The notes beneath the pieces were generated by a model that did no database searches, had not been told where the DNA came from, and was given only the letters and a program-made list of their open reading frames with translations. Of a stretch of DNA of 64,000 nt, positions 24,340 through 51,518 are shown piece by piece (the stretch's first letter is position 1; every line of letters starts with the position of its first letter). The DNA comes from Acidimicrobiia bacterium. GTDB taxonomy: Bacteria > Actinomycetota > Acidimicrobiia > Acidimicrobiales > Aldehydirespiratoraceae. The stretch is from positions 109,604 through 173,603 of the forward strand of contig JAJEDD010000014.1 in NCBI GenBank assembly GCA_022821685.1, in the 5' to 3' direction. A program made the translations under genes and the position numbers.

Positions 24340-24472
24340 AGAGGCCGAGCGAATAGGGAAGCGAGTCAGTCTCATACGGGCGAGGCCGTGGCCCGAGCGG
24401 CCCGTGAGCGCAGCGAACAAGAGCGGGAATGACACCGCTGCCGCCCGCGGGACTTGCCATCAATCCGCGCAT
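24340..24472 (+). repeat. intergenic repeat element, copy A
   Basis: The 62-bp core GCGAGGCCGTGGCCCGAGCGGCCCGTGAGCGCAGCGAACAAGAGCGGGAATGACACCGCTGC (24380-24441) is identical to 46332-46393. The flanks AGAGGCCGAGCGRATAG and CAATCCGCGCAT are shared too. Confidence 0.8.
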
Positions 24473-25379: not shown

Positions 25380-26705
25380 ATGAACAGTCCAGGTCCCCGG
25401 TTGCGGCGCATCGACAACGCCCGCCTGCTTCCCTGCACCGACGAGACCGTCATCACCGACGGCACGGTGGTGATCGACGGCGAGCTGATCGGCTGGATCG
25501 GGCCGTCGCATGATCTGCCCCGCGAGTTCCAAGACGAGGCGATGCCGACGGTGAACGCGGGCGGCGCCACCGTCATGCCGGGACTGGTCGACGGCCACAT
25601 GCACATCAGTTTCGGCGAGCCTCACACCGAGGAGGAGCTGTACATCTATACGCCGTCGCCGTATCGAGCCATCCGGGCCGCCGCCAGCGCCGAGACCGTG
25701 CTGCTGGCCGGAGTCACCAGCGCCTGCGACCCGGGCGGGCCCACCGGAATCGCCCCCGCGGTGCGCGACGCGGTTGCGGCCGGGCTCATCCAGGGACCCA
25801 GACTCTCAGCCGCGGGCCGGCAGATAACCACCCAGCAGGGCATTGGCGACACGCTGCCTCGCTGGATCGATGTGGCCGAATCGTCGTTCGGGGCGCTGGT
25901 CCACGGTCGCGGCGAGCTGCTGAGCGAGATACGCGACCAGGTCAAGGACGGGGTGGACCTGATCAAGATCGCCGGGTCCGGTCCGGGAACCACCGAGTGG
26001 GCCGCGTTCCGGCGCGACGAACTCGAGCTCGCGGTAGACGAGGCCCACCGGCTCGGGCGTCCGCTGGCCATGCATGCCCGGTCCCGCCAGTCCGTGGCTG
26101 ACGCGGCCGCCGCCGGCATCGACTGGATCATGCACGCCTCCTACATGGACACCGAGACCCTCGACCGGGTGCTGGAACGCGACATCCCGCTGCTTCCGGC
26201 CATGACGCTGCTCGTCAACTCGCTGGAGGCGGGCGGGATGCGGCCCGCCGCCAACGACGCCATCCGGCGAGAACTGGACGCGGCCGTCTCCATCCTCTCC
26301 AAGGCCCACGAGCAGGGCGCCACGCTGATAGCCGGATCCGAGAGCGGGTTCGCCATGACCCCCTACGGCCAGTGGCACACCCGGGAGATGGAGTTGTTCG
26401 TCAGCCACCTCGGCATGAGCGATATGCGTGCCCTGCTGTGCATGACCCGCGACGCCGCGGTGGCCGTGCCCCGGGACGCAGCCATGATCGGCACTCTGAC
26501 CCCCGGCAAGTACGCCGACATGCTGATAGTGGACGGGCGGCCCGACGAGAACGTGTCCATACTGGCCGACCGGCGGCGCTTCCGAGTGATGAAGGGCGGA
26601 CAGGAGGTCGAGCTGTGGCGGCCCGATTCGGTGCCGACCCGGCGCATGCCCTTCGAGCAGGCCCGTCCCTACGTGCCAGCCCGATTCGAGCGCGAGCTTC
26701 CGTGA
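25380..26705 (+). CDS. metal-dependent amidohydrolase family protein
   Basis: 441 aa. It has the PGLVDGHMHISFG metal-binding motif, an internal LAMHAR motif, and a C-terminus with ADMLIVDG. These are typical of the amidohydrolase_1 superfamily. Confidence 0.85.
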   Translation: MNSPGPRLRRIDNARLLPCTDETVITDGTVVIDGELIGWIGPSHDLPREFQDEAMPTVNAGGATVMPGLVDGHMHISFGEPHTEEELYIYTPSPYRAIRAAASAETVLLAGVTSACDPGGPTGIAPAVRDAVAAGLIQGPRLSAAGRQITTQQGIGDTLPRWIDVAESSFGALVHGRGELLSEIRDQVKDGVDLIKIAGSGPGTTEWAAFRRDELELAVDEAHRLGRPLAMHARSRQSVADAAAAGIDWIMHASYMDTETLDRVLERDIPLLPAMTLLVNSLEAGGMRPAANDAIRRELDAAVSILSKAHEQGATLIAGSESGFAMTPYGQWHTREMELFVSHLGMSDMRALLCMTRDAAVAVPRDAAMIGTLTPGKYADMLIVDGRPDENVSILADRRRFRVMKGGQEVELWRPDSVPTRRMPFEQARPYVPARFERELP

Positions 26706-36782: not shown

Positions 36783-37979
36783 ATGCCCGCAATTCCAGCC
36801 GAGGCCGACGTTGTGGTGATCGGTGCCGGGGTGACCGGCGCCAGCATCGGCTATCAGCTCGCCCGGACCTCGAATCGCCGGGTGGCGGTGGTGGACGCCC
36901 GGCCGCCGGTGGGCGGCATCTCGGGACGCACCTTCGGCCAGATCCGCCAGCACTACTCCAACGAGCTGATGGTTCGTATGGCGCAGCGAGGCTTCCACTG
37001 CATCCGCAACTGGGCCGACGAGGTGGGCTACGGCGATCCGGGCTATGTGCGCCTCGGCTACATGCTCATCGTCACCGAGAACCAGATCGAGGGCCTGAGG
37101 CGCAACGTCGAGCTGGGCCGCCGCCTCGGAGTGGACACCCGCTTCGTGGGCCCCGACGAGATCGGGGCCATCGAGCCGCTAGTGAACGCCGACAGCCTGG
37201 CCGGCGGCGCCTATGAGCCCGACGGCGGCTACATCGACGTGACCCGGATGGTGTTGAGCTGGCTGGGCGCGGCCCAAGCCCACGGCGCCGACGTGATCGC
37301 CCCGCTGACGGTGACCGAGATCACCACTGCTGCCGGCGCGGTCACCGGCGTGGCCACCGCCCAGGGCACGATCTCGGCGCCAACGGTGGTGGTGGCCACC
37401 GGCGCCTGGGCCACAGACCTGCTGGATCCGCTCAAGGTCAACGTGCCGGTGCAGCGGCGGCGGCTCGACCTGGCCATGCTGGAGCAGGCCCCCGGCACCG
37501 GGGCGTTGCACACCTTCATCACCGACGGGAACTCCAACCTGGTGATCCGCCCCGACATGGGCCGCCGCGTGCTAGCGGTGGCCTACCCGCCGCAGATGCC
37601 CGAAGTGGAGGACCCGCTCGCAGACGCTGGCGATGCTGGCCACGCCGAGCACGCAGCCCGGATCCGGGCCGCGGTGGCCGAACGGCTCCCCGCCCTGGCC
37701 ATCGCCGAGACGGTGTCGACCACCAGCGGGGCCTACGACGTCACCCCCGACTACCACCCCATCCTCGGCTGGGCTTCGGAGACCGCCGATGTGTCCGGCC
37801 TGTACCTCGCGGTCGGATTCTCAGGTCACGGGCTCAAGCTGTCGCCCGCGGTGGGCGAGATAGTCGCCGCCCACGTCCTCGGCACACTCCCGCCGCTGGA
37901 CGCGGGCCCGCTGCGGCCCAGCCGCTTCGCCGACGGCGACCTGATGCACCTCACCTACGGCCCCAGCGCCCGCGCCTAG
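36783..37979 (+). CDS. FAD-dependent oxidoreductase (DAO family; glycine/sarcosine/D-amino-acid oxidase-like)
   Basis: ATG 36783. The dinucleotide motif is DVVVIGAGVTGASIGYQLA and the C-terminus has GFSGHGLKLSPAVG. The track form from 36579 overlaps glcB. Confidence 0.85.
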   Translation: MPAIPAEADVVVIGAGVTGASIGYQLARTSNRRVAVVDARPPVGGISGRTFGQIRQHYSNELMVRMAQRGFHCIRNWADEVGYGDPGYVRLGYMLIVTENQIEGLRRNVELGRRLGVDTRFVGPDEIGAIEPLVNADSLAGGAYEPDGGYIDVTRMVLSWLGAAQAHGADVIAPLTVTEITTAAGAVTGVATAQGTISAPTVVVATGAWATDLLDPLKVNVPVQRRRLDLAMLEQAPGTGALHTFITDGNSNLVIRPDMGRRVLAVAYPPQMPEVEDPLADAGDAGHAEHAARIRAAVAERLPALAIAETVSTTSGAYDVTPDYHPILGWASETADVSGLYLAVGFSGHGLKLSPAVGEIVAAHVLGTLPPLDAGPLRPSRFADGDLMHLTYGPSARA

Positions 37980-37984
37980 CTTGT

Positions 37985-38050
37985 GAGCTGGGCCCGAGCG
38001 GCCCGCAAGCGCAGCGAAGACGCGCGAAAAGGACAAGACCCGAGCGGCGT
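37985..38050 (+). repeat. degenerate copy C of the intergenic repeat element
   Basis: GGCCCGAGCGGCCCG (37991-38005) and AGCGCAGCGAA (38008-38018) match the 62-bp core of copies A and B. The rest has diverged. Confidence 0.5.
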
Positions 38051-38471: not shown

Positions 38472-39647
38472 GTGACCGACACGACCGAATCGACCGACAC
38501 CCACCGGATCCTGGTTGTCGACGACGAGCCGGACCTTGAGCCGCTCATGCTGCAGCGCATGCGGCGCTACATCCGCAAGGGCACCTACGAGTTCGTGTTC
38601 GCCCACGACGGCATGGAGGCGCTCGACGCTCTCAGCCTCGACAGCAGCATCGATATGGTGCTCTCCGACATCAACATGCCCAGGATGGACGGGCTCACGC
38701 TGCTCGAGCGGATCCCCGACGTGGCCCCCGACATCCGGGCGGTGATCATCTCGGCCTACGGCGACATGAAGAACATCCGGATCGCCATGAACCGGGGCGC
38801 CTTCGACTTCGTCACCAAGCCCGTCGACTTCGACGACCTCAAATTCACCATCGATCGGACCCTGCAGCACATCCGGGAATGGAAGGAGGCGCTCAGCGCC
38901 CGCGACAAGCTCGTGGTTCTGCAGAACGAGCTCAATGTGGCGAGCATGATGCAGCAGTCGATCCTGCCCAACAAGTTCGCCCGCAGCGACGACTACAAGC
39001 TCTTCGGCACCATGCAGCCGGCCCGCAACGTCGGCGGAGACTTCTTCGACGTGATCGGCCTGGCCGACGGCAAGGTGGGGCTGGCCATCGCCGACGTGTC
39101 GGGCAAGGGCGTGCCCGCCGCGCTGTTCATGATGTCGAGCCGCACCCTGCTGAAGGGCGCCGCCATGCGCTCCGACGGACCGGCCGAGGCGCTGTCGGAA
39201 GTGAACGACGTGCTCAACGAGGACAACGACGCCTGCATGTTCGTCACCATGATCTACGCCGTGTACGACCCCGCCACCGGCGAGCTGGTCTACGCCGACG
39301 GCGGTCACGACCCTCCGCTGGTGGTGCACGCCGACGGCAGCACCACCCAGCTCGCCATGACCGAGGGAATCGCCCTGGGAGTGCTGCCCGAGCACGAGTA
39401 TCTCCAGGACTCGTACCGGCTCGCGCCGGGCGACACCGTGGTGCTGTACACCGACGGCGTCACCGAGGCCATCAACGCCGAGGACGAGCAGCTCGGGCTG
39501 CAGCGCCTGCGGCGAGCGTTCGAGCTGAGCCCGCCCACCGGCGCCGAGGAGGCCGGCCAGCGGGTCATCGACCTCGTTAACGACTTCGCCGGAGACGTGC
39601 CCCAGTTCGACGACACGACTTGCCTGGTTCTGCGCCGGGAGAGCTGA
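38472..39647 (+). CDS. response regulator receiver fused to PP2C (SpoIIE/RsbU-type) phosphatase
   Basis: The receiver region is ILVVDDEPD...DMVLSDINMPRMDG. The PP2C region is GGDFFDV...IADVSGKGVPAALFM...LYTDGVTEA...DDTTCLVL. Confidence 0.9.
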   Translation: MTDTTESTDTHRILVVDDEPDLEPLMLQRMRRYIRKGTYEFVFAHDGMEALDALSLDSSIDMVLSDINMPRMDGLTLLERIPDVAPDIRAVIISAYGDMKNIRIAMNRGAFDFVTKPVDFDDLKFTIDRTLQHIREWKEALSARDKLVVLQNELNVASMMQQSILPNKFARSDDYKLFGTMQPARNVGGDFFDVIGLADGKVGLAIADVSGKGVPAALFMMSSRTLLKGAAMRSDGPAEALSEVNDVLNEDNDACMFVTMIYAVYDPATGELVYADGGHDPPLVVHADGSTTQLAMTEGIALGVLPEHEYLQDSYRLAPGDTVVLYTDGVTEAINAEDEQLGLQRLRRAFELSPPTGAEEAGQRVIDLVNDFAGDVPQFDDTTCLVLRRES

Positions 39648-39657
39648 GGCCGGGCCG

Positions 39658-40089
39658 ATGCTGTTTCTGACGGCCGACATCGGCGGCGAGGTGCACCAGA
39701 CGAGCCACGAGGAGCTGACCGACCTCGTGTCGGCCGTCGAAGTGTTGGCCGCCGCCGACGGCTGGGCCGACGATCTGACCTTCAAGGTCACCCTGGTCGT
39801 CGACGAAATAGGGCAGAACGCGGTGGACTATGCCTACGGCAACGGCGTCGGCGATGTGGAGGTGTTCGTCACCTCCTGCGCCGAGACGCTGGAGATCGAG
39901 ATTGTCGACTCCGGCGAGCCGTTCGATCCGCTGACCGAGGCCCCGGCCCCGGACTTGACCTCGGGAATCGAAGACCGGCCCATCGGCGGCCTGGGAGTGC
40001 ACCTCACCAAGTCCCTCATGGAGGACGTGACGTACCGCCGCGAGTCGGGAAAGAACCGTCTGAAGGCCGTCACCTCCAAGCTGGGATGA
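39658..40089 (+). CDS. RsbW/SpoIIAB-like anti-sigma serine kinase (HATPase domain)
   Basis: 143 aa. Features are VDEIGQNAVDYA (N-box-like) and GGLGVHLTKSLMEDV (G-box-like). It sits between the PP2C and SBP genes. Confidence 0.78.
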   Translation: MLFLTADIGGEVHQTSHEELTDLVSAVEVLAAADGWADDLTFKVTLVVDEIGQNAVDYAYGNGVGDVEVFVTSCAETLEIEIVDSGEPFDPLTEAPAPDLTSGIEDRPIGGLGVHLTKSLMEDVTYRRESGKNRLKAVTSKLG

Positions 40090-41363
40090 TCAGTGCGCTG
40101 ATGCCGGGCCGGGGCCGCTGGTGGGCAGCCGCGGCCGCGGTGGCGGTGTTGGCCGCAGCCTGCACCGACGGTGGCGAGTCCGGCGAAGATGTCGAGGCCC
40201 CCGCCCCGAACGGATCGGAGTCGGTCGCGCCGGCCGCGGGGCCGGACCCGGACACCATGGGCATCTCCGAGGACCGCATCCTCTTCGGCCAGTCGGCCGC
40301 CTTCAGCGGTCCCGCCAAGGAGCTGGGCATAAACATGCGGCTCGGCATCCTGGCCGCCTTCGATGAGGCGAACGCCGACGGCGGGGTGAACGGCCGCCGG
40401 TTGGAGCTCACCTCGCTCGACGATGCCTACGAGCCCACCGACGCCATCGTGATGACCCGCAACCTGATCGAGCAGCAGAACGTGTTCGCGCTCATCGGAG
40501 CGGTCGGCACGCCCACATCGCGCTCGGTGACGCCGCTGGCCCGCGCCGCCGGGGTGCCCTACATCGCTCCCTTCACCGGAGCCGCCTTCCTGCGCGCCGA
40601 CGAGTGGGACAACATCATCAACCTGCGGGCCTCGTACAACCAGGAGACCGAGGAGATGGTGGCCCGCCTCACCGACGACCTAGGCATCAGCCGGATCGGC
40701 GTGATGTATCAGAACGACTCCTTCGGCCGGGCCGGGTTCCGGGGCGTGGTCGCGGCCCTGGAGCGCCGCGGCATGGCCCCCGTGGCCATCGGGATCTATC
40801 CCCGCAACACCACCGCAGTGAAGACCGCCCTGCTCGACCTGCGCCGCAGCGATCCCGAGGCGGTGATCATGGTCGGGGCCTACGAGCCGGTAGCCAGGCT
40901 GATCTCCTGGGCCCGCCGCATCGACATGGACCCCGTCTTCATGACCGTCTCCTTCGTCGGCAGCAATGCCCTGGCCCAGGAGCTGGGTCCCGACGGCGCC
41001 GGGGTGCTGGTGACCCAGGTCGTGCCGTTCCCCGAGGACGACTCGCTCCCGGCGGTGCGGGCCTATCTCGACGCCCTGGCCAGCCACGACCCCGAGGCGG
41101 AGCCGGGCTTCGTCTCTCTGGAGGGCTATCTGGCCGGCAGGCTGGTGATCGCCGCGCTCAAGAACTGCGGTCCCGAAGTCGATCGGTCGTGCTTGCAGGA
41201 GCATCTCATCGACCTCGGACGCGTCGACATCGACGGACTCAGCCTGCAGTTCGGCGAGGGCGACAACCAGGGCTCCGACGAGGTTTTCCTGACCGTGATC
41301 GGCACCGACGGCGAGTACCACCCGGTGCAGACCCTGCACGAGATCCCCCGGTGGACGAGCTGA
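40086..41363 (+). CDS. branched-chain-amino-acid-type (LivK/PBP type I) substrate-binding lipoprotein
   Basis: The lipobox is LAAAC. FGQSAAFSGPAKELGINMRLGILAAFDEANADGGVNGRRLEL is typical of the Peripla_BP_6 family. The ATGA overlap with the upstream gene implies co-translation. Confidence 0.85.
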   Translation: MISALMPGRGRWWAAAAAVAVLAAACTDGGESGEDVEAPAPNGSESVAPAAGPDPDTMGISEDRILFGQSAAFSGPAKELGINMRLGILAAFDEANADGGVNGRRLELTSLDDAYEPTDAIVMTRNLIEQQNVFALIGAVGTPTSRSVTPLARAAGVPYIAPFTGAAFLRADEWDNIINLRASYNQETEEMVARLTDDLGISRIGVMYQNDSFGRAGFRGVVAALERRGMAPVAIGIYPRNTTAVKTALLDLRRSDPEAVIMVGAYEPVARLISWARRIDMDPVFMTVSFVGSNALAQELGPDGAGVLVTQVVPFPEDDSLPAVRAYLDALASHDPEAEPGFVSLEGYLAGRLVIAALKNCGPEVDRSCLQEHLIDLGRVDIDGLSLQFGEGDNQGSDEVFLTVIGTDGEYHPVQTLHEIPRWTS

Positions 41364-43573
41364 TGACGGACCATCCGACCGATTCGCTCGATGAGCTGCC
41401 CCCGGACATGTCGTCGCGGCCGGCGCTGGGGATCTGGTCGCGCATATCCACCAAGCTGTTCCTGGGCATCGGCGGCGCGGTGGCCCTGACTCTGGCCGCC
41501 AGCGTCGTCGGCTGGTACTCCTTCAACCGGGTGGGCGACGCGCAGCGGCGCGTCAACGAGGGCAGCGTGCCCGAGCTGGCCGCCGCCTTCGGAGTGGCCC
41601 AGTACGGCGGTATCCTGGCCAACGCGGCCCCCAGCCTGGCCGCGGCCTCCACCTCGCTGGAGCTGTTCCAGGTGGGCCAGCGGATCGACCAGACCGCGCT
41701 CCGCTTCGAGGGCCAGATGGAGGCCCTGGAGCAGAGCGAGAGCGACGACGCCAGCATCGCCGGCATCAGACAGAGCGCCGACATGCTCCTCGCCAATATC
41801 GAGGAGATCCGCTCCGAAGTGGGCACGAGGCTGGAGATCGCCGAGCAGCGGAGCGCGCTGCAGGGCGAGCTGGCCGGGCTGCGCAACCAGGTGAGCGGGG
41901 CGCTGATCCCCGCCATCGACGACCAGTTCTTCTACACGCTGACCGGCTTCACCGAACTCGACGCGCCGCCCGCGGGCCGCACCGAGCACTTCTCGGAGAC
42001 CGAGGTCTTCCGCTACCGGAGCCTGGCCGAGCTGGAGGCCGACGCCAACGTCGCCTCGGATCTGCTGGCCAGTGCCTTCGCGCTGTCCGACGCCAGCCTG
42101 CTGGAGCCGCTGCGGGAGCGCTTCGAGGCCGCCGCCAGCCGGATCGATCAGAACCTCGCCGCACTGGCGGGCGCCGACTTCCACGCCGACGCCGAGCCGA
42201 TCTTCGCGCGGCTGCTCGAGCTGGGACTGGGTGCCGACAGCGCGTTCGACCTGGCCGCCAGCGAGTTCCAGATCCTGGAGCACCACCAGGATTCGCTCAC
42301 CCAGAACAGCGATCTGTCGGTCACGCTCGGCGACGAGGTCGACAGCCTGGTGCGGACCTCCCAGGAGCGGGCCTCCGAGGCCACCACCGCCTCCGAGCAG
42401 GCCATCAGCACCGCCCGCAGCGCGCTGTTGGCCATCAGCGCGGCCAGCGTCGTGGGCGCCATCCTGCTCATCTGGCTGTTCGTGGGCCGGATCCTGGTGC
42501 GGCGCATCGCCCTGCTGTCGGACTGGATGCGGCGCATGGCCGGCGGCGACTTGGAGGCCACCGCCGAGATCAGCGGCCGCGACGAGGTGGCCGACATGGC
42601 CGCCAGCCTGGAGGTGTTCCGGCGCCACGCCCTGGAGGTTCAGCGCCTCAACCTGGTTGAGCAGCTCGCCGACGAGCTTCAGGGCAAGAACGAGGAGCTG
42701 GAGGGAGTGCTGGCCGAGCTGGAGAAGGCTCAGGACCAGATCGTCACCCGTGAGAAGCTGGCCGCCCTGGGCGAGCTCACCGCGGGCGTGGCCCACGAGA
42801 TCAAGAACCCCCTGAACTTCGTGAAGAACTTCGCCGAGGCCTCCGGCGAGCTCATCGACGAGCTCAAGGAACTGCTCGAGGATGTCGGCGACAGCCTGAG
42901 CGACGACGACAAGTCGTACATCAACGAGATCGCCGGCGACCTGACCGGCAACGTGGAGCGCATCCGCTCCCACGGCGAGCGGGCCGACCGCATCGTGCGC
43001 GACATGCTGATGATGGGCCGCGACTCCGGCGAGTGGCAGCTCACCGACATCAACGGCCTGATCGAGCAGCACGCCCAGCTCTCGTTCCACAGCGCCCGAG
43101 CGCTCGATCCGGATTTCCAGCTCGACATCCAGCAGGACTTCGATCCCGCCGTCGGCCAGCTCAAGGTGATCGCCCAAGATTTGGGGCGAGTCTTCTTGAA
43201 CATGGTCACCAACGCGGGCCATGCCACCAACGACCGCCACCGCGCCGAAGCAGCCGCGGGCAACGAGGAGTTCCAGCCCACCCTGTGGATCAAGACGGTT
43301 CGGGCCGGCGACGAGGTCGAGGTTCGGGTCCGCGACAACGGAACGGGCATGCCTCCGGAAGTGGTGGAGAAAATCTTCAATCCCTTCTTCACCACCAAGC
43401 CCACCAACCAAGGAACCGGCCTCGGCCTGTCGATCTCAAGCGACATCGTCCGCCGCCACGGCGGGCAGATTCAGGTCGAGTCCGAGCCGGGATCCTTCAC
43501 CGAGATGATCATCACCCTGCCGGTCGAGGCCCCCGAAGAAGCCGAGGCGACCGCGGGCGACTCCTGGGTCTGA
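41363..43573 (+). CDS. sensor histidine kinase with large extracytoplasmic helical domain and HAMP
   Basis: ATG 41363 overlaps the SBP stop. Two TM helices bracket an extracytoplasmic region of ~330 aa. The H-box is LTAGVAHEIKNPLN and the ATPase boxes are RDNGTGMP and GTGLGLSIS. The longer track form (40604) runs in another frame through the SBP gene. Confidence 0.88.
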   Translation: MTDHPTDSLDELPPDMSSRPALGIWSRISTKLFLGIGGAVALTLAASVVGWYSFNRVGDAQRRVNEGSVPELAAAFGVAQYGGILANAAPSLAAASTSLELFQVGQRIDQTALRFEGQMEALEQSESDDASIAGIRQSADMLLANIEEIRSEVGTRLEIAEQRSALQGELAGLRNQVSGALIPAIDDQFFYTLTGFTELDAPPAGRTEHFSETEVFRYRSLAELEADANVASDLLASAFALSDASLLEPLRERFEAAASRIDQNLAALAGADFHADAEPIFARLLELGLGADSAFDLAASEFQILEHHQDSLTQNSDLSVTLGDEVDSLVRTSQERASEATTASEQAISTARSALLAISAASVVGAILLIWLFVGRILVRRIALLSDWMRRMAGGDLEATAEISGRDEVADMAASLEVFRRHALEVQRLNLVEQLADELQGKNEELEGVLAELEKAQDQIVTREKLAALGELTAGVAHEIKNPLNFVKNFAEASGELIDELKELLEDVGDSLSDDDKSYINEIAGDLTGNVERIRSHGERADRIVRDMLMMGRDSGEWQLTDINGLIEQHAQLSFHSARALDPDFQLDIQQDFDPAVGQLKVIAQDLGRVFLNMVTNAGHATNDRHRAEAAAGNEEFQPTLWIKTVRAGDEVEVRVRDNGTGMPPEVVEKIFNPFFTTKPTNQGTGLGLSISSDIVRRHGGQIQVESEPGSFTEMIITLPVEAPEEAEATAGDSWV

Positions 43574-43605: not shown

Positions 43606-44835
43606 TCACCACTGGCGGGACTGCTCGGCGTAGACGTGGTCGGGCAGCCGGTAGTCGATGCCGAGTTCCTCTAGGGACGACACCTCCAGCAGCGTGTTGA
43701 ACGCGGTGAAGTTCGACTCGCGGGTCAGCCTTGGGAACCGCTTGCGCATGAACTGGTGATACCGCCGCTGCAGCCGGAACCATCTAAGAACCCCGATGGT
43801 TCGAGAGGGCGGGTAGTTGAGCTGATCGGCCACCTCGCTGCCGATCATGGCCCGCGACACCTCGAAAATGTACTTGGTCAGCTTGCGGCGAGCGTCCCGC
43901 TCGGCGATGCCCGCCACCACCGGGGCCGAGTTGATCAGCGCGTTGGCCAGCACGATCGACTCCATGCCCGGATCGGGCTCGCACAGCCGGCCGATCTCGA
44001 ACAGTGCCAGGGCGTCGTCGTAGTCGCCGCAGAGGATCGTCTCGGGTATCCCCATCAGGTGGCCCGAGTAGCGCCAGACGTCCATGAAGCTGTCGCGCTC
44101 GGACTCGCTGTAGTCGGCGCCCATCTTCTTCATGTGCTGGAGCATCCGGGCCGAGAAGGCGGTGAGGGCGAAGCCGACCTGGGCGGCGCTGAGCGGCTCG
44201 CCCCACGCCTCGGTGTCCCAGTCGTCGGAATGGTTGAACAGGTGCCTGACCTTGGCGTGGATCAGCCGGATCCGGATCGACAGCCTCCAGCCGTCGCCCC
44301 TGAAGTCCAACCCGCCCGGCAGCAGGATCTCGATCATGTGGCGGTTGTTCTGGTGCAGGCGCCTCACACCCTGGTCGCGCAGCCTGCCGGTGATGAAGAA
44401 CGACCGGGCGATGGTGGTGGTGAATCCCTCCACCAGCACTCCGCCCAGCATGGAGGCCAGACACGCGCCCGAGTCCCGGTGGAAGGCCCGGATGCCTCCG
44501 TCGAAGCTGGCCGACTCGACCCAGGCGGGAACGGTCTGCAAGTCCTCGACGAAGGCATGCACCGCGGCCGGGGCATCGCGCAGCACCGGATCGTCGGGAT
44601 TCTCGATGGCGGCGCGGATCAACCGATCCGAGTCCCGGGCCGAGACCTCGCTGAGCTGCTCCATCATCTCGTCGCACAGCGGATCACCAATGGTGGTGTG
44701 AACGATGTAGTTGCGGGCCCGCACCGGATCCACCGCGCGCGCCCGGGCATACGTGGCGAGATAGTCGGTCGGGATGGTCAGCGGTTCAGAGCCGTCGGAG
44801 CCTCCGTTGGCACCGTTCGAGATGAGTTGCCCCAT
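43606..44835 (-). CDS. oxygenase MpaB / DUF2236 family protein
   Basis: 409 aa. Blocks such as GVRRLHQNNRHMIEILLPG and RIRLIHAKVRHLF match my recollection of DUF2236 (MpaB / latex-clearing-like) proteins. Confidence 0.7.
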   Translation of the reverse strand: MGQLISNGANGGSDGSEPLTIPTDYLATYARARAVDPVRARNYIVHTTIGDPLCDEMMEQLSEVSARDSDRLIRAAIENPDDPVLRDAPAAVHAFVEDLQTVPAWVESASFDGGIRAFHRDSGACLASMLGGVLVEGFTTTIARSFFITGRLRDQGVRRLHQNNRHMIEILLPGGLDFRGDGWRLSIRIRLIHAKVRHLFNHSDDWDTEAWGEPLSAAQVGFALTAFSARMLQHMKKMGADYSESERDSFMDVWRYSGHLMGIPETILCGDYDDALALFEIGRLCEPDPGMESIVLANALINSAPVVAGIAERDARRKLTKYIFEVSRAMIGSEVADQLNYPPSRTIGVLRWFRLQRRYHQFMRKRFPRLTRESNFTAFNTLLEVSSLEELGIDYRLPDHVYAEQSRQW

Positions 44836-44918: not shown

Positions 44919-46238
44919 TCAGCTCCATGGGTAGGGCGAGTTGCTCACCGGGTGGAGCTTGCCCTCGGCGTAGCGCGACCACCGGAACGGCGCCAGCAAC
45001 CCTTGGGGCTCCCCCAGCAGCTCGGCGGCCACCAGCGGGCCGACGCCGATCATCTTGTAACCGTGGTTGGAGTCGGCGATGAAGTAGACGTTGTCGCAGA
45101 ACGTGTCGAACACCGGGAAGTTGTCGGGCGAAAAGCTGCCGATGCCGCCGGAGGGCTCGGTGCTCATGAGATGCGACTTGCCCTCGAAGCGCTTCTGGCA
45201 GTGGGCCAGCGCCGCGGTCCAGGTGCGGTAGAAGTCCTCGCCCACGATGAAGTCGGGGGAGTCGGGTCCGTAGGGGTCGACAGCCACCTGGTCCGCCGGC
45301 TTGTCCACCACGTAGGGCATGTAGCCGCCCTGCACGCCGCCGAAGTTGAAGTCGGGCTTGTAGTACACGCCCCACGGCGCATCGGTGACCAGCCCGGCCT
45401 CGTCGTACAGCGGGGCGTCGGTGTCGATGTGCACCACCGGCGGCATGGTGCCGTCGTTGGCGGTGAGGTAGCCGGGATCGACCTCGAGGGTGCCCTCCTG
45501 CAGGCACATGTAGGTCCAGGTCGGGCGACGATGCAGGCACCCGTCGCCGCCGAGCACGTCGGTCTCGAACGGCAGGTCGAGCATGGCCCAGATCTGCTGC
45601 ACCCACGGCCCCACCGCCACCACCGCCTGCTCGCAGGCCACCGGGCCCTGATCGGTCAGCACCGCGGCAACCGCTCCGGAGGCGTCGCGGTCGAAGCCGG
45701 TGACGGTGACGCCGCCCACCACCGTCACCCCCTGGGCCTCGGCCTTGCCGAGCAGCCCTTTGAGCGAAGCCATGTTGTTGGCGTAGCCGCCGCGGTGCTC
45801 GTGCAGCACGCTGGTGACGCCCTGGGCCTGCCAGTCGTCGAAGATTCCCCGCATGTACGCCGCCGACTCGTCGGCGCCCTCCACGAACGTCGAGGAGTAG
45901 CCGATGGCCTGCTGCTGCTCGTGGATGGAGGCCACATCGGCTCGCATGGCCTCATGGCTGATCTGCAGGTAGCCCACCGGGTGGTAGGAGAACGCCTCGG
46001 GGTCGCTCTCCCACACGTCGACGCAGTGGGCCATCAGCTCGCGCATGGCCGGCTGGAAGTAGTTGTTGCGCACCACGCCGCAGGCGATGCCGGAGGCGCC
46101 CGCGCCGACGCCGGTCTTGTCGATCACCACCACGTCGTCGCCCGACACCCGCGGGTCTCGGGCCAGGCTCCAGGCGGTCGACAGGCCGTGGATGCCTGCG
46201 CCGATGATCACATAGCGCGCTGAGCTGGGAAGTCCCAT
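44919..46238 (-). CDS. FAD-dependent oxidoreductase (DAO family, sarcosine-oxidase-beta-like) with long insertions
   Basis: 439 aa. The dinucleotide motif is YVIIGAGIHGLSTAWSLA. AAGGAGGG lies before the ATG. It is the last gene of the gmaS-mgs strand block. Confidence 0.85.
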   Translation of the reverse strand: MGLPSSARYVIIGAGIHGLSTAWSLARDPRVSGDDVVVIDKTGVGAGASGIACGVVRNNYFQPAMRELMAHCVDVWESDPEAFSYHPVGYLQISHEAMRADVASIHEQQQAIGYSSTFVEGADESAAYMRGIFDDWQAQGVTSVLHEHRGGYANNMASLKGLLGKAEAQGVTVVGGVTVTGFDRDASGAVAAVLTDQGPVACEQAVVAVGPWVQQIWAMLDLPFETDVLGGDGCLHRRPTWTYMCLQEGTLEVDPGYLTANDGTMPPVVHIDTDAPLYDEAGLVTDAPWGVYYKPDFNFGGVQGGYMPYVVDKPADQVAVDPYGPDSPDFIVGEDFYRTWTAALAHCQKRFEGKSHLMSTEPSGGIGSFSPDNFPVFDTFCDNVYFIADSNHGYKMIGVGPLVAAELLGEPQGLLAPFRWSRYAEGKLHPVSNSPYPWS

Positions 46239-46279
46239 TGGCGCTGCCCTCCTTGTGTTGCCGCCCCGCCTTGTGCCTT

Positions 46280-46424
46280 AGAGGCCGAGCGGATAGACCC
46301 CGCCCCGCTTGCGGTTCCTGCAGTGCGCATAGCGAGGCCGTGGCCCGAGCGGCCCGTGAGCGCAGCGAACAAGAGCGGGAATGACACCGCTGCACCGCGA
46401 AACGTTTGGGAGCAATCCGCGCAT
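46280..46424 (+). repeat. intergenic repeat element, copy B
   Basis: The core 46332-46393 is 62/62 identical to 24380-24441, and both flanks are shared. It sits in the 190-bp spacer between two co-oriented minus-strand genes. Confidence 0.8.
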
Positions 46425-46428
46425 GTTC

Positions 46429-46884
46429 TTAGTGGCCGGCGGGGGCGGTCCAGCCCTCCAGCACCGGCTGTCGCCAGTCGGCGCCCACCACCGGTGAGTC
46501 GTCCACCCACGGCCCCAGCTCCACCTGCGGGAACTTGCAGTGGATGTCCTTGAGGGTGATCCCGTAGGAGTTGCCCTCGGTGAGATGCTTGACCAGCACC
46601 TTGCGGGCGATCTCGTCCTCTCGGCCCGCGGGGATGTCGAAGTAGATCTTCAGGAACGAGTTGGAGTAGCGGTCGAACACCGCGGGCACGCCGTCCTCCT
46701 CCAGCAGGTTGATGTCCTCCAGCCAGTTGATGTCCTGTCCGGGAGTGGCGGCCAGCAGGTCGATGTCCTCCACCAGCGACATGTCCTCCTGGTAGGCGAA
46801 ACGCTTGCCCGCCAACACCTCGGCATCGATGGCAACCGTTCGGGTCTCGCGCGAGCTCTCGCCCGTGCTCGCCGATCCAGCCAT
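46429..46884 (-). CDS. hypothetical 151-aa acidic protein, no family recognised
   Basis: ATG 46884 lies 2 nt after the mgsC stop. The sequence looks like a normal protein (MAGSASTGESSRETRTVAIDAEVLAGKRFAYQEDMSLVEDIDLLAATPGQDINWLEDINLLEEDGVPAVFDRYSNSFLKIYFDIPAGREDEIARKVLVKHLTEGNSYGITLKDIHCKF...). The N-terminal 112 aa of the track ORF overlap mgsC and are rejected. Confidence 0.7.
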   Translation of the reverse strand: MAGSASTGESSRETRTVAIDAEVLAGKRFAYQEDMSLVEDIDLLAATPGQDINWLEDINLLEEDGVPAVFDRYSNSFLKIYFDIPAGREDEIARKVLVKHLTEGNSYGITLKDIHCKFPQVELGPWVDDSPVVGADWRQPVLEGWTAPAGH

Positions 46885-46886
46885 TC

Positions 46887-48281
46887 TCACGTACCTCCGT
46901 CGATCACGTGCTTCTCGAACAGATCCCGGATCTCGGCCAGGGTGCGCTCCTCGGTGACGCCCGGGATGTAGTTGGTTCCCGCCAGCGGCACCTTGGCCAT
47001 GGCCGCGGCCTCGTGGGTGAGGGCGGCCAGATCCTCGGGCTCCAGCGAGTGGATGTCGGTCTTGCCGCAGGCCCGGGCCAGCATCTGCACTTCCATGGTG
47101 AGGGTGATCAGGAAGTTGTAGACCCGCAGGGCGGCCTCGTCGACGTCGAGGCGCTTGCGCAGCTCCACATCCTGGGTGGCCACCCCCACCGGGCAGCGGC
47201 CGGTGTGGCAGTGGTAGCACTCCCCCGCGGGCACGCCGATGGTGCCCTCATAGTCGGTGACGCCGGGAATCTCCTTGTTGCAGTTGAGCGCCATCAGCGC
47301 GGCCGTGCCCAGCGCCACCGCGTTGGCGCCCAGGGCCAGGCACTTGGCCACATCGCCGCCGTTGCGGATGCCGCCCGCCACCACGAGGTCGATGTCGTCG
47401 GCCAGGCCCACGTCCTCCAGGGCCCGGCGGGCCTCGGGGATGGCCGCCATCAGCGGGATGCCGGTCTCCTCGGTGGCGAGGTGGGGTCCCGCGCCGGTGC
47501 CGCCCTCGGCGCCGTCGAGGTAGATCACGTCGGGGCCGCACTTGGCCGCCATGCGCACATCGTCGTACACCCGGGCCGAGCCCAGCTTGAGCTGGATGGG
47601 GATCTGGTAGTCGGTGGCCTCGCGGATCTCCTGGATCTTGAGCGACAGGTCGTCGGGGCCGAGCCAGTCGGGATGCCGGGCCGGGGAGCGCTGGTCGATG
47701 CCCGCTGGCAGCGAGCGCATCTCGGCCACCTGCTCGGTCACCTTCTGGCCCATGAGGTGGCCGCCCAGACCGACCTTGCAGCCCTGGCCGATGAAGAACT
47801 CCACCGCGTCGGCCAGCATCAGGTGGTGGGGGTTGAAGCCGTAGCGGCTCTGGATGATCTGGTAGTACCACTTGGTGGACAGGTCGCGCTCGGGCGGGAT
47901 CATCCCTCCCTCGCCCGAGCAGGTGGCGGTGCCGGCCATGGAGGCGCCCTTGGCCAGCGCCATCTTGGCCTCCAGCGACAGCGCGCCGAAGCTCATGCCG
48001 GTGATGTACACCGGGATGTCGAGCTCCAGCGGCTTGGCCGCGAAGCGCGATCCGATCACCGTGCGGGTCTCGCACTTCTCCCGGTAGCCCTCGATCACGA
48101 ACCGGGTGAGCGTTCCGGGCAGGAACACCAGCTCGTCCCAGTGGGGGATCTTCTTGAAGATGGAGAAGCCCCGCATCCGGTAGCGGCCCAGCTCGGCCTT
48201 CACATGGATGTCGTTGATGACCTCCGGGGTGAAGATCCGGCTCTTGCCGAGAACGTCGGTGCTCTTGTTCACCTCTGCCAT
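46887..48281 (-). CDS. mgsC: FMN-binding glutamate-synthase-family protein, N-methylglutamate synthase subunit C type
   Basis: 464 aa. Motifs present are GMSFGALS, LDGAEGGTGAGP and GGIRNGGDVAKCLALGANAVALGTA. The assignment rests on its context with gmaS, mgsA and mgsB. Confidence 0.85.
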   Translation of the reverse strand: MAEVNKSTDVLGKSRIFTPEVINDIHVKAELGRYRMRGFSIFKKIPHWDELVFLPGTLTRFVIEGYREKCETRTVIGSRFAAKPLELDIPVYITGMSFGALSLEAKMALAKGASMAGTATCSGEGGMIPPERDLSTKWYYQIIQSRYGFNPHHLMLADAVEFFIGQGCKVGLGGHLMGQKVTEQVAEMRSLPAGIDQRSPARHPDWLGPDDLSLKIQEIREATDYQIPIQLKLGSARVYDDVRMAAKCGPDVIYLDGAEGGTGAGPHLATEETGIPLMAAIPEARRALEDVGLADDIDLVVAGGIRNGGDVAKCLALGANAVALGTAALMALNCNKEIPGVTDYEGTIGVPAGECYHCHTGRCPVGVATQDVELRKRLDVDEAALRVYNFLITLTMEVQMLARACGKTDIHSLEPEDLAALTHEAAAMAKVPLAGTNYIPGVTEERTLAEIRDLFEKHVIDGGT

Positions 48282-48312
48282 GGCTGCCCCTCGTATCTGT
48301 CTCAGTCGTGCT

Positions 48313-49107
48313 CTAGTGGATGACCAGCTTGCGCTCGGAGGGCTCCAGCGCGTCGTAGTTGTGGAGCTGCTTGCCGCACACGAACTTCTGGAACTCGGGC
48401 GGGTCGCCGAGACTGTGGATACCGAACTTGCGCTCGATCAGCTCGGTGTCGGCGTCGTCCCACTCGCCGGGCACGCAGTCCACTCCCAGCGAGCGCACCT
48501 TGCCGGCCACATAGATGGCGCCGTCGTACATCGAGTCGCCCAGGTTCATGCCCGCGTTGCCGCAGATGATCTGGCGGCCCCGCTGCATCATGAACCCGGT
48601 GTTGATGCCCACGTCGCCGGTGACGATGATCGTGCCGCCCTTCTGGTCGATGCCGGTGCGAGCCCCCACGTCGCCCTTGACGATCAGGTCGCCGCCCCGG
48701 ATGGCCGCCCCGGTGAGCGACCCCGCGCTGCGCTCCACCGTCACCACTCCCGACATCATGTTCTCGGCCACCGACCAGCCCACCCGGCCGTTGATGGTGA
48801 CCTCGGGGCCGTCGATCAGCCCGCAGGCGAACCAGCCCGGGCTGCCCTCGAAATGGATGCGGCAGCGCTTGAGGATGCCTACTGCCAGCGAGTGCTTGGA
48901 CGCCGGGTTGAGCACGGTCACGTCGGCGATGCCGTCGTTGTAGATGAGTTGGCGCAGCGCCATGTTGATCTGGCGGATGGTCAGCTCGGAGGCGTCGAAG
49001 CGGGCCCGGTCACCGTCGACCTCGATGTTGTCGGGCATGTCGGCGTGGGGCTCCACCAAGCCCCGGGCGTCGTAGCTGATGCCGCTGCGCGACCCTGAGC
49101 CAGGCAT
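48313..49107 (-). CDS. mgsB: GXGXG-motif (glutamate synthase alpha C-terminal domain-like) protein, N-methylglutamate synthase subunit B type
   Basis: ATG 49107 follows GAGGGGAG. It has repeated beta-helix Gly motifs: GDVGARTGIDQKGGTIIVTGDVGINTGFMMQRGRQIICGNAGMNLGDSMYDGAIYVAG. Confidence 0.82.
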   Translation of the reverse strand: MPGSGSRSGISYDARGLVEPHADMPDNIEVDGDRARFDASELTIRQINMALRQLIYNDGIADVTVLNPASKHSLAVGILKRCRIHFEGSPGWFACGLIDGPEVTINGRVGWSVAENMMSGVVTVERSAGSLTGAAIRGGDLIVKGDVGARTGIDQKGGTIIVTGDVGINTGFMMQRGRQIICGNAGMNLGDSMYDGAIYVAGKVRSLGVDCVPGEWDDADTELIERKFGIHSLGDPPEFQKFVCGKQLHNYDALEPSERKLVIH

Positions 49108-49159
49108 TACTGCTCCCCTCTTCGGCGGTGGCTCCGACGGCTGCGGCGTGGACGTGAAC

Positions 49160-50089
49160 TCAGACCTGCCACACCAGCACCTCTCGCTCGTAGGGGTCGC
49201 GGGTCTCCACCTCGCGCTGCACCAGCGCCCGGATGGCGACCTCCTCGGTGGCCACCGCCACCAGCGGCTCCGACTCGAACAGCACCAGCGGCTTGGCCGC
49301 CATCTCGTCTTTGGCGATGCCGAGTTCGTTGCCGGTGACACACACGTAGGTGAACACGCCGTCGAGGTCGTCGAGGCTGTGCTTCATGGCCGTCTCCAGC
49401 GTCAGGCCGCGGGACATGTACTCAGCCAGGTACACCGCGATGATCTCGGAGTCGCACTCGCTCTGGAAGCGGTGGCCGTGCTGTTCGAGGCGGCGGCGCC
49501 ACTGGTGGTAGTTGGTGAGCTGGCCGTTGTGGACCACGGCCACGTCCGCGAAGGGGTAGGCCCAGTAGGGGTGGGCGCTGGCCAGGTCGACCTCGGACTC
49601 GGTGGCCATGCGCACGTGGCCGATGCCGTGGGTGCCCCGGAACGAGCCCAGACTGTACTGGCCGCTGACCGTCTCGGCGTCGCCGAGGTCCTTGATGATC
49701 TCCAGCGAGCTGCCCAGCGACAGCACCTCGCAGCCGTCCACATCCTCGAGGTAGTCGGCCAGCGCCTTGAGGTCGCCGCCGTAGCGGATGGTGGCCCGGA
49801 AGGCGTAGCCGGTGTCGCTGCTCACGGTGGCCACCTCGGCGCCGATCTTGGCCAGGCGGCTCTCGACCTCGGCCCGGTTGCGCTCCAGGCGCTCCTCCAT
49901 GCCGAAGCCGGTGCTCTTGTTGGGCTCGGCCAGCACGAACCGGACCACGACGAGGTCGTCGGCCGGTCCGTACACCGCGTAGCCGGTGGAGTCCGGCCCG
50001 CGGTGCTTCATCGACTGGAGCATGGCCGTGAGCTCGGTCCCGACGTCGGCGGCGCCATCCCGATGGATTACGCCCGCTATGCCGCACAT
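49160..50089 (-). CDS. mgsA: class-II (Ntn) glutamine amidotransferase-like protein, N-methylglutamate synthase subunit A type
   Basis: 309 aa. It starts MCGIAGV, with the catalytic Cys right after Met. Confidence 0.82.
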   Translation of the reverse strand: MCGIAGVIHRDGAADVGTELTAMLQSMKHRGPDSTGYAVYGPADDLVVVRFVLAEPNKSTGFGMEERLERNRAEVESRLAKIGAEVATVSSDTGYAFRATIRYGGDLKALADYLEDVDGCEVLSLGSSLEIIKDLGDAETVSGQYSLGSFRGTHGIGHVRMATESEVDLASAHPYWAYPFADVAVVHNGQLTNYHQWRRRLEQHGHRFQSECDSEIIAVYLAEYMSRGLTLETAMKHSLDDLDGVFTYVCVTGNELGIAKDEMAAKPLVLFESEPLVAVATEEVAIRALVQREVETRDPYEREVLVWQV

Positions 50090-50117
50090 GGTGCTGCCTC
50101 CTTGTTTGGGTCGCCCG

Positions 50118-51518
50118 CTAGGGGAGGACGTCGAGGTACTCCTCTACGTCCCAGTCCGAGACGGTGTGCAGGAACCGCTCCCACTCGTCGTTCTTGTAAT
50201 GGAAGAACACGTTGCTCATCTCGCCCGGCAGCGCCCGCATGACCACCTCGTCGCTGCGCAGCGCCTCCAGGGCCTCGCCCAGGGTCAGCGGGATCTTCTG
50301 CACGTCCTTGCCGGCCTCCATGGCCTCGTAGATGTTGCGCTCCTCGGGCTGGCCCGGATCGAGGCTGCGGTCGAGGCCGTCGTCCATGGCCTGCAGCAGG
50401 CCCGCGAACGACAGGTGGGGGTTGACCGCGCTGTCCACCGAGCGGTACTCGAAGCGGCCCGGCGCGCTGACCCGCAGGGCGGTGGTGCGGTTCTGGAAGC
50501 CCCAGTCGGCGAACACCGGCGCCCAGAAGCCGGTGTCCCACAGCCGGCGGTAGGAGTTCACCGTGGGCGAGGTCAGGCAGGTCAGGGCCCGCACATGCTC
50601 GAGGATGCCGCCGATGGCCTTCATGCCGACCGGGCCGGGAAGCTGCGGGTTGTCGCCTTCGGGCATGAACTTGTTGTTGCCGTCGCCGTCCCACAGCGAG
50701 ATGTTGTGGTGGCAGCCGTTGGCCGACACTCCCATGAACGGCTTGGGCATGAAGCACGGGAAGGCTCCGAGCTCGCGGCCCACCTGCTTGCAGACCTGGC
50801 GGTAGGTGGTGAGCCGGTCGGCGGTGAGCTCGGCCCGGTCGAAGTTGAAGTTCAGCTCGAGCTGGCCGGGGGCGTCCTCGTGGTCGCCCTGGATCATGTC
50901 GAGCCCCATGGCCTCGCAGTACTCGATCACTTTGTGGATCAGGGGCTGCAGCTCGGCGAACTGGTCGATGTGGTAGCAGTTGGGCTTGGTCATGCCCTCC
51001 ACGGTGGGCTTGCCGTCGGCGTCGGCCTTGAGCCACATCATCTCGGGCTCGCAGCCGGCCCGCAGGTGCAGCCCGTGCTTGGCCTCGAAATCGGCGTGGA
51101 GCCGCCGCAGGTTGCCCCGGCAGTCGGAGGTCAGGTAGGCGCCGCCGTCGACCTCCTCCTCGCGGCCCCTGAACAGGGTGCACCACACTCGGGCCGTGCG
51201 GGTGTCCCAGGGCAGCGGCATGAACGTCTCGGGCTCGCCGATGCCGACCAGCTCGCGGGCCTCGGGGCCGTAGCCGATGTAGTTGCCGTGCCGGTCGATG
51301 AACAGGTTGGCGGTGGAGCCGTACACGAGCTGGAAGCCCTTGCGAGCGATCATGCCGAAGTGCTTGGCCGGGATGCCCTTGCCCATGATCCGTCCCGTCA
51401 CCGAGACGAACTGGCAGTACAGGTAGCGGATGTCGTCGGCCTCGATGCGGGCCTCCACCTCGCGGATCTGCTCCTCGCGTCCGTCCGCTGCGACGAACCG
51501 CTCTAGGTCAGTGGACAT
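50118..51518 (-). CDS. gmaS: glutamine-synthetase-family protein, gamma-glutamylmethylamide synthetase type
   Basis: ATG 51518 (MSTDLERFVAADGREEQIREV...). GS catalytic-domain blocks are present (CEPEMMWL, GDHEDAPGQLELNF, MPKPFMGVSANGCHHNISLW). It lies directly upstream of mgsABC. Confidence 0.82.
   Translation of the reverse strand: MSTDLERFVAADGREEQIREVEARIEADDIRYLYCQFVSVTGRIMGKGIPAKHFGMIARKGFQLVYGSTANLFIDRHGNYIGYGPEARELVGIGEPETFMPLPWDTRTARVWCTLFRGREEEVDGGAYLTSDCRGNLRRLHADFEAKHGLHLRAGCEPEMMWLKADADGKPTVEGMTKPNCYHIDQFAELQPLIHKVIEYCEAMGLDMIQGDHEDAPGQLELNFNFDRAELTADRLTTYRQVCKQVGRELGAFPCFMPKPFMGVSANGCHHNISLWDGDGNNKFMPEGDNPQLPGPVGMKAIGGILEHVRALTCLTSPTVNSYRRLWDTGFWAPVFADWGFQNRTTALRVSAPGRFEYRSVDSAVNPHLSFAGLLQAMDDGLDRSLDPGQPEERNIYEAMEAGKDVQKIPLTLGEALEALRSDEVVMRALPGEMSNVFFHYKNDEWERFLHTVSDWDVEEYLDVLP

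Follow-up and report, generated by a model that had tools for sequence, protein, structure and literature searches.

Which protein does the fifth gene encode in an actinobacterial operon that otherwise resembles the gamma-glutamylmethylamide/N-methylglutamate (NMG) pathway module, and with which of its neighbours does it act? The question is raised by a 64,000-nucleotide stretch of DNA from an Acidimicrobiia bacterium (positions 109,604 to 173,603 of contig JAJEDD010000014.1, assembly GCA_022821685.1), the whole of which we refer to as the window. In it, a gene for a ligase resembling glutamine synthetase (GS) and three glutamate-synthase-like genes (gmaS and mgsABC by resemblance) are followed on the same strand by a gene for an acidic 151-amino-acid (aa) protein, orf151, and by one for a single DAO-family flavoprotein. 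An earlier note, made from the sequence alone, had offered two ideas: that these last two genes form a simplified NMG-oxidising system replacing the four-subunit dehydrogenase MgdABCD, or that the 151-aa protein is a fourth subunit of the synthase. Our survey of the locus across genomes and metagenomes favours the second idea. We consider it probable that the block is a type II NMG-like module in which orf151 is an obligate stoichiometric partner, and effectively a fourth subunit, of the synthase.

The six minus-strand open reading frames (ORFs) on which the earlier note was built are all present, with the domains it described. In transcriptional order they encode a GS-like protein, classed here as a type II GmaS-like gamma-glutamyl-amine ligase (466 aa; 50118..51518; PF00120, Gln-synt_C, E 1e-83); an MgsA-like Ntn (class II) amidotransferase subunit (309 aa; 49160..50089; N-terminal MCGIAGV, GATase_6 and GATase_7); an MgsB-like GXGXG beta-helix subunit (264 aa from an MPGSG start; 48313..49107; PF01493, E 1e-14); a type II MgsC-like flavin mononucleotide (FMN) subunit with cysteines C334, C355, C358 and C363 (464 aa; 46887..48281; PF01645, E 2e-93); orf151 itself (isoelectric point 4.4; 46429..46884), recognized by its coding signature, its conservation and its linkage to mgsC; and an MgdA/SoxB-like DAO-family flavoprotein (439 aa; 44919..46238; PF01266). 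The window sequence also bears out the 2-nt gap between mgsC and orf151, with the ATG of orf151 lying 2 nt past the mgsC TGA and a GGAGG 9 nt 5' of that ATG, as well as the 190-nt repeat-bearing spacer between orf151 and the DAO gene (46239..46428, no strand; core repeat 46332-46393). To place the locus in context, one genome per GTDB species was scanned, at least 593 species were found to carry an orf151 homologue, and the best 80 were examined; counts below refer to 74, 77 or 80 genome loci as stated, and the metagenome set was sampled by MgsC, not by orf151. The adjacency of an Ntn Cys1 amidotransferase, a GXGXG protein and an FMN protein beside gmaS, the gene content of an MgsABC-type synthase, is kept in 80 genome loci.

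orf151 is a real gene under purifying selection, because its base composition at third and second codon positions (GC3 0.91, GC2 0.41) matches that of the neighbouring genes, its ratio of nonsynonymous to synonymous substitutions (dN/dS) against relatives is 0.05-0.16, and its homologues fill 7,518 clusters at 90% identity. When 1.8 billion cluster representatives were scanned with HMMER, only 186 clusters at 50% identity were recovered, mostly frameshifted fragments, and full-length members in that scan are at least ~67% identical. Across classes, the window protein is 68-95% identical to its relatives, and about 55 positions are invariant and spread over the entire length. The best 80 species belong to Acidimicrobiia, Thermoleophilia (Solirubrobacterales and Gaiellales) and other Actinomycetota. 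Every named homologue carries the label 'hypothetical protein', and the named ones come from Acidimicrobiia metagenome-assembled genomes (MAGs), including 'Candidatus Poriferisodalis'. Among the cluster members and in a second homologue search we found no cultured host and no annotation, the entries being MAG or metagenome sequences throughout, and no orf151 was found on plasmids in PLSDB.

The earlier note had recognized no motif in the 151-aa protein, and none has come to light: orf151 has no match in Pfam, NCBIfam or the sequences of the PDB. The structural comparison rests on an AlphaFold2 model built from an 86-sequence alignment (predicted local distance difference test, pLDDT, 80.8), an earlier model from 11 sequences (56.8) having been too poor for use. 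With this model, Foldseek found no match among PDB folds (best E 0.7, template modelling score <=0.21), so that the fold search suggested by the earlier note brought up no unrelated known family. The model is made up of three short helices at the N-terminus, a sheet of three strands, two further helices and a long C-terminal coil, and may be described as a small alpha/beta core from which long arms extend; no cofactor motif is present. Two specific identities were considered and rejected, namely a remnant of the GltB central domain and a SoxD/SoxG-like subunit, neither of which gave a Pfam match even at E <=1 or a Foldseek match in the PDB. The GltB central domain (PF04898) likewise gave no match in any of the operon proteins, and none in orf151 even at E <=1. 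Because neither sequence nor fold matches, orf151 is not a recognizable SoxD, SoxG or GltB central domain; the fold-based part of this exclusion presumes that the PDB library holds the GltB and sarcosine oxidase structures found by the sequence searches.

Evidence for assigning orf151 to the synthase comes from its position. It lies directly 3' of type II mgsC in 74 of 74 genome loci and in all 73 metagenome loci with enough downstream sequence, and wherever a genome locus includes upstream DNA, the order is gmaS-mgsA-mgsB-mgsC-orf151, on one strand. At 41 of the 74 loci the start of orf151 overlaps the mgsC stop by 4 nt, and nearly all remaining gaps are 27 nt or shorter. A three-subunit synthase that has no other obligatory gene is not what the type II loci present, since orf151 accompanies mgsC at 74/74 and 73/73 loci. 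A comparison internal to one genome (L018) agrees with this linkage, as its type II set includes orf151 and its canonical-type set, with a cysteine-less MgsC, does not. Pairwise-distance (mirror-tree) correlations of orf151 are 0.80 with MgsC, 0.79 with MgsA, 0.78 with MgsB, 0.69 with the DAO protein and 0.58 with GmaS, which we regard as weak evidence for an association of orf151 with Mgs. Because it is always encoded directly after type II mgsC, orf151 is most likely an extra subunit, and the idea of a fourth synthase subunit, raised in the earlier note as one of two options, gains support from the strict linkage, the 4-nt overlaps and distances that track those of MgsA, MgsB and MgsC. The co-occurrence check proposed at the same time came out unevenly for the two genes: linkage of orf151 to mgsC is complete, whereas that of the DAO gene is partial (within 10 kb at 45/77 loci).

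The module to which orf151 belongs is, by its protein sequences, a type II paralogue set distinct from the canonical proteobacterial gmaS-mgsABC. The window proteins are highly similar to those of relatives across classes (MgsC 85-99%, MgsB 68-97%, MgsA 59-97%, GmaS 50-97% identity). When compared with canonical proteins from one Methylobacterium plasmid and one Acinetobacter plasmid, identity is 54% for MgsC, ~33-41% for MgsA and MgsB, and 28-30% for GmaS. Against TIGR03105 the ligase scores 324.2 bits, under the equivalog cut-off of 469.6. The hallmarks of GmaS, known from a crystal-structure study, are a GS fold without the ammonium-binding Asp50' and a replacement of the catalytic flap Glu by Trp (PMC7948447). 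Aligned with GlnA of E. coli and with canonical GlnT, the window ligase has Tyr in place of Asp50 and Trp in place of flap Glu327 (GFWAP), together with a 10-residue insertion in the Asp50-loop region. Because of these two replacements, the residues at hand identify the ligase as GmaS-like rather than a true glutamine synthetase. The 'established NMG signature' seen by the earlier note thus holds as far as the four protein types go, whereas the proteins themselves form a separate paralogous subfamily, with MgsC at 54% and GmaS at 28% identity, a ligase below the TIGR03105 cut-off and iron-sulfur (Fe-S) cysteines kept. In the searchable literature we found no account of a fifth gene, nor of gmaS or the NMG pathway in Acidimicrobiia, Thermoleophilia or Poriferisodalis. 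The sole Gram-positive study describes Gma-MgsABC in Mycobacterium, with MgdABCD encoded elsewhere, and mentions no extra gene (PMC5023230).

The cysteines of MgsC also set the type II module apart. C334, C358 and C363 align with C1102, C1108 and C1113 of E. coli GltB, presumably the residues that hold the [3Fe-4S] cluster in glutamate synthase, and a fourth cysteine, C355, is also conserved. The four-cysteine motif, which reads ALNCNK...G[EQ]CYHCHTGRCPVG[VI][AT]TQD in type II MgsC, occurs in 72 of the 74 copies from genomes and in 78 of the 80 from metagenomes; the few others were unreadable. The region reads 'GECYHCHTGRCPVG', with four cysteines, in the window protein and is a cysteine-less 'AGAYDDWHEGKDPAG' in canonical MgsC, where Asp, Tyr/Trp and Asp take these places. 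Because the GltB [3Fe-4S] triad and the fourth cysteine are kept, the FMN of type II MgsC can probably, by analogy with glutamate synthase, exchange electrons with an outside partner. The role of the [3Fe-4S] cluster in GltS has been described (PMC8097209).

A cyanobacterial locus bears on whether these cysteines and orf151 belong together. Plasmid pA of Kovacikia minuta encodes an MgsC 51.5% identical to that of the window, with the same four-cysteine motif and with mgsA and mgsB flanking it; neither orf151 nor gmaS is present in the 9.3-kb locus. Strict covariation of orf151 with the Fe-S cysteines was accordingly rejected, as it holds in Actinomycetota and is broken by the cyanobacterial four-cysteine MgsC. 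Across the sequences compared, the cysteines are probably ancestral, and orf151 is probably specific to the actinobacterial branch and not to the Fe-S site as such. In the same plasmid locus (125-5290), an upstream ORF (125-775) is possibly SoxG-like and an ORF in the 1.5-kb gap between mgsB and mgsC (3010-3888) looks Mrr-like, both on reading only.

Taken in order, the proteins of the module would carry out the following reactions. At the expense of ATP, the GmaS-like ligase would couple glutamate to a small amine, most likely methylamine. MgsA, through its Ntn Cys1, would hydrolyse the amide and pass the amine to MgsC, with MgsB serving as a GXGXG scaffold, and MgsC would use its FMN to form an N-alkyl-iminoglutarate and reduce it to N-methylglutamate. 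Where present, the DAO protein would oxidize the N-methyl group, regenerating glutamate and releasing formaldehyde. orf151, made by translational coupling with MgsC, would be a structural, capping or docking subunit that binds to MgsC, a role to which its predicted structure, with its extended arms and lack of a cofactor motif, is suited.

Several points weigh against this reading. The differences between the mirror-tree correlations are small and confounded by shared phylogeny. Because the four-cysteine MgsC of Kovacikia lacks a nearby orf151, the Fe-S site alone needs no orf151. A direct part in electron transfer is unlikely for orf151, because it has no cofactor motif. Methylamine is a presumed substrate, the ligase being only 28% identical to characterized GmaS. 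Finally, one Acidimicrobiales contig (L018, 1673-12602) carries a type II set and a canonical-type gmaS/mgsABC set next to each other, with a DAO gene between them; the type II set has a four-cysteine MgsC and orf151, the canonical-type set a cysteine-less MgsC and no orf151, and the presence of both suggests that the two types are not redundant.

This last observation belongs to the alternative that survives best, in which orf151 is still an Mgs partner and the module acts on an amine other than methylamine (dimethylamine, ethylamine or ethanolamine), yielding another N-alkyl-glutamate. Side-by-side occurrence of the two types would suit such a division of roles, as would the low identity of the type II ligase to canonical GmaS (28%) with its insertion of ten residues in the Asp50 loop, the lack of dmm genes next to tmm and tdm in the window, and Puu-like neighbours at some loci (Peptidase_C26, ALDH, a PuuB-like DAO protein and a second GS-like gene). 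The recurrent neighbours, however, include genes of Tdm architecture, FTHFS and Amt, which point to one-carbon units and methylated amines, and characterized GmaS is already promiscuous for small amines (PMC7948447), so that the need for a second system is not obvious. A different substrate seems unlikely to us.

That orf151 is an assembly or maturation factor, for instance for the insertion of Fe-S or FMN into MgsC, or a regulatory inhibitor, and not part of the mature enzyme, we judge to be quite improbable. Strict linkage and translational coupling fit such a protein equally, and an acidic polypeptide with extended arms and no catalytic or cofactor motif would not look out of place in this role. 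Yet coupling through 4-nt overlaps and near-invariance over the full length are more typical of stoichiometric subunits, and the cyanobacterial four-cysteine MgsC manages without orf151. We give somewhat less credence still to a more elaborate version of the subunit reading, a redox-coupled cycle for methylamine nitrogen resembling GS-GOGAT. In it, the type II MgsC would take up electrons through a retained Fe-S cluster and reductively condense methylamine, supplied as gamma-glutamylmethylamide, with 2-oxoglutarate; orf151 would be a new docking protein or cap at the cluster, linking MgsC to an electron donor that is possibly the DAO protein, so that electrons from the oxidation of N-methylglutamate would return to its synthesis. 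Such an enzyme, found among some of the most abundant Actinomycetota of soil and sea, would depart in chemistry and subunit make-up from the canonical NMG synthase, which is redox-neutral.

The remaining candidate partner of orf151 is the flavoprotein. Its PF01266 match spans residues 9-221 only, that is, the N-terminal half; against TIGR01373 (soxB) it scores 76.6 bits over residues 10-229 only, with a cut-off of 529.45, and its best PDB sequence matches are SoxB and dimethylglycine oxidase (DMGO), at E ~3e-8. An ortholog lies within 10 kb at 45 of 77 loci (58%). At 19 of these 77 loci, as in the window, it is co-directional and directly downstream of orf151, with gaps of 1-210 nt (down to 1-15 nt in Thermoleophilaceae). 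In Solirubrobacterales it is divergent and upstream of gmaS, with orf151 still at the mgsC end; in Gaiellales it is convergent and downstream, and elsewhere it is some kb distant. About 16 loci with full 10-kb flanks have orf151 and no DAO gene, and among metagenome loci a DAO gene is found within 5 kb in 23 of 73. Many of the DAO-less loci show an ACAD-like gene, a gene of Tdm architecture, a flavin reductase, an APC permease and sometimes a flavin amine oxidase.

Beyond Actinomycetota, homologues of the DAO protein that are 70-75% identical occur in MAGs of Gemmatimonadota, Gammaproteobacteria and Verrucomicrobia, some of them under the JGI name 'methylglutamate dehydrogenase subunit A'. Two such contexts, in the gemmatimonadotal 'Ca. 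Palauibacter' (L082) and in a gammaproteobacterial MAG (L083), contain neither mgs genes nor orf151, and one of them adjoins a Peptidase_M24 gene. The identity of these two homologues (73-75%) exceeds what vertical descent would lead one to expect and, because it is reached across phyla, suggests horizontal transfer.

It is thus very improbable that orf151 serves the DAO protein as a small partner subunit, comparable to SoxD/SoxG or MgdB/MgdD, in a simplified N-methylglutamate dehydrogenase. The tight co-directional arrangement at 19 loci and in the window, and the mirror-tree correlation of 0.69, speak for such a pairing. They are outweighed by the presence of orf151 in every locus, including the ~16 fully flanked ones without a DAO gene, by the low metagenomic count, by the Solirubrobacterales loci in which the DAO gene is divergent from gmaS and orf151 is still attached to mgsC, by the homologues outside Actinomycetota that have no orf151 nearby, and by the lack of a SoxD/SoxG match in Pfam or a sarcosine oxidase fold match. 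The pair proposed in the earlier note is consequently not supported, on account of the DAO-less loci and of the DAO homologues found elsewhere without orf151 or mgs. Its companion idea, that the lone DAO protein performs the NMG-oxidising step, stays plausible in view of the 45 of 77 loci with an ortholog within 10 kb, the 19 at which it lies directly 3' of orf151 and the MgdA labels given by JGI. From its distribution, the DAO protein thus appears to be a separable single-subunit N-methyl-amino-acid-oxidase-like enzyme, often recruited to the module and not an obligate partner of orf151.

The spacer that separates the two genes carries an intergenic repeat of ~150 nt, which also occupies 24330-24445. 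Over a core of 62 nt, the spacer copy (46332-46393) matches 24380-24441 exactly, and part of the repeat recurs a third time at 37991-38018. In the close relatives L001-L006 the spacer between orf151 and the DAO gene is only ~45 nt. Because these relatives lack the repeat in that spacer, the 190-nt length in the window results from an insertion of the repeat, which in turn looks like a small mobile or REP-like (repetitive extragenic palindromic) element. No terminator-like site was found on the coding (minus) strand of the spacer. An RNA element was considered here and rejected, as the spacer has no Rfam match and folds no more stably than shuffled sequence (z = -0.02). In another relative (L008, 10454-10666), about ten copies of a 16-nt unit (GGCTCCCGTTTCGTCC) are arrayed in tandem in the same spacer, and because of this array the spacer seems to be a hotspot of insertion.

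Hardly credible, finally, is the view that the block is a split GS/ferredoxin-type GOGAT operon for ammonium assimilation with orf151 as a GOGAT accessory subunit: MgsC does keep the GltB 3Fe-4S cysteine triad, the Mgs trio does correspond to the amidotransferase, FMN and GXGXG domains of GltB, and the GS-like protein does score alike against GS and GmaS structures in the PDB, but the ligase has neither the Asp50 that is strictly conserved in GS nor the catalytic flap Glu, the latter being Trp as in GmaS (PMC7948447), MgsC is 54% identical to canonical MgsC against 32% to GltB, and neighbouring genes of the Tdm-like, FMO, FTHFS, DAO, amine oxidase and permease kinds give the loci a catabolic setting.

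The wider surroundings of the operon, with tmm-, tdm- and amt-like genes, lend support to a part in the catabolism of methylated amines. On the plus strand, ~25 kb from the operon, the window encodes an Amt-family transporter (15281-16684), a DUF1989+GCV_T+GCV_T_C protein with the architecture of a trimethylamine N-oxide (TMAO) demethylase (17546-20164) and an FMO-like, Tmm-like monooxygenase (20247-21578). DUF1989 is the N-terminal domain of the TMAO demethylase Tdm (PMC12560246). The segment 15281-21578 looks like a methylated-amine island resembling a catabolic cluster for trimethylamine (TMA) and TMAO; no dmm-like genes were seen beside tmm and tdm in the window. The neighbourhoods of relatives contain Tdm-like genes, FTHFS and an APC permease. 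In Thermoleophilia (for example L019 12920-17186, L026 15460-19589 and L069 13484-17820), a trio of ACAD-fold, Tdm-architecture and flavin reductase genes recurs beside the type II operon, often with an APC permease, a 131-aa membrane protein and Usp nearby; this trio may represent a two-component flavin monooxygenase route for methylated amines that replaces the FMO-type Tmm.

Other genes of the window deserve mention. A second DAO-family oxidoreductase of full length (36783-37979, plus strand), 26% identical to the operon DAO protein, is encoded after malate synthase G (34556-36721, plus strand), and several Acidimicrobiia relatives have the pair in the corresponding place; this second DAO protein may be an oxidase that forms glyoxylate and works together with malate synthase. 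Beside the operon, 38472-43573 on the plus strand encodes a regulatory block made up of a response regulator-SpoIIE phosphatase fusion, an anti-sigma-type HATPase_c_2 kinase, a Peripla_BP_6 binding protein and a TorS-like HAMP histidine kinase. In L001-L011 the binding protein and kinase occupy the equivalent position, with ~80% conservation, and the block is a candidate for the sensing of amines. The DAO gene is followed directly by an MPAB_Lcp_cat-family oxygenase-like gene (43606-44835, minus strand), which L001-L006 and L011 have in the same place with 73-97% identity. At 8922-12797 (minus), 22423-23865 (minus) and 25380-26705 (plus) lie genes for hydantoinase/oxoprolinase A and B subunits, an amidase and an amidohydrolase; these genes could serve the degradation of creatinine, N-methylhydantoin or lactams to sarcosine-type products, an alternative source of substrate for the DAO enzymes.

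Should these bacteria use the five- or six-gene type II module to metabolize methylamine, or some small amine akin to it, amine degraders in large numbers have probably been missed. Solirubrobacterales, Gaiellales and Acidimicrobiia are abundant, poorly cultured lineages of soil, marine and sponge-associated habitats, and surveys based on gmaS or mgd markers may well overlook these degraders because the ligase shares only 28% identity with canonical GmaS and scores under the cut-off of the curated model. With orf151, a new unannotated protein family without a known fold (at least 593 GTDB species, ~7,500 clusters) joins a pathway thought to be genetically complete. The survival of a GltB-type Fe-S site in one branch of N-methylglutamate synthases further raises the question of whether such enzymes are redox-neutral like the classical one.

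Set beside known systems, the module resembles three of them in part. With SoxBDAG and MgdABCD it shares the FAD-binding (flavin adenine dinucleotide) half of the DAO protein, which resembles the SoxB/MgdA beta subunit. The window DAO protein, by contrast, has no alpha, gamma or delta genes and no adjacent tetrahydrofolate-binding (GCV_T) partner; SoxA-, SoxD- and SoxG-like domains were found in none of the scanned ORFs of the 64-kb window, so the four genes of an Mgd dehydrogenase are not assembled here. Where canonical loci have mgdABCD, no mgdBCD-like genes were seen, and a single DAO protein takes their place in only 45 of 77 loci. With GltB and ferredoxin-dependent GOGAT, the Mgs proteins share an Ntn amidotransferase, an FMN barrel and a GXGXG beta-helix, and MgsC shares the cysteine triad and a CHxxxCPxGxATQD motif. 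They differ from GltB in that these domains are split over three polypeptides, MgsC shares 32% identity with the FMN domain of GltB and has a fourth cysteine and an 18-residue insertion between the first and the later cysteines, the partner ligase is GmaS-like and not a true GS, and orf151 has no GltB or GltD counterpart. The third resemblance is to the canonical gmaS-mgsABC modules of Methylocella, Methyloversatilis, Methylobacterium and Roseobacters, which have the same four clustered protein types in a methylated-amine context. Gene order there is mgsABC-glnT on the Methylobacterium plasmid, with glnT first in Acinetobacter, as against gmaS-mgsABC in the window and in Actinomycetota; and whereas the canonical loci examined, those of the Methylobacterium and Acinetobacter plasmids, have no orf151, in type II loci such as that of the window its presence is obligatory.

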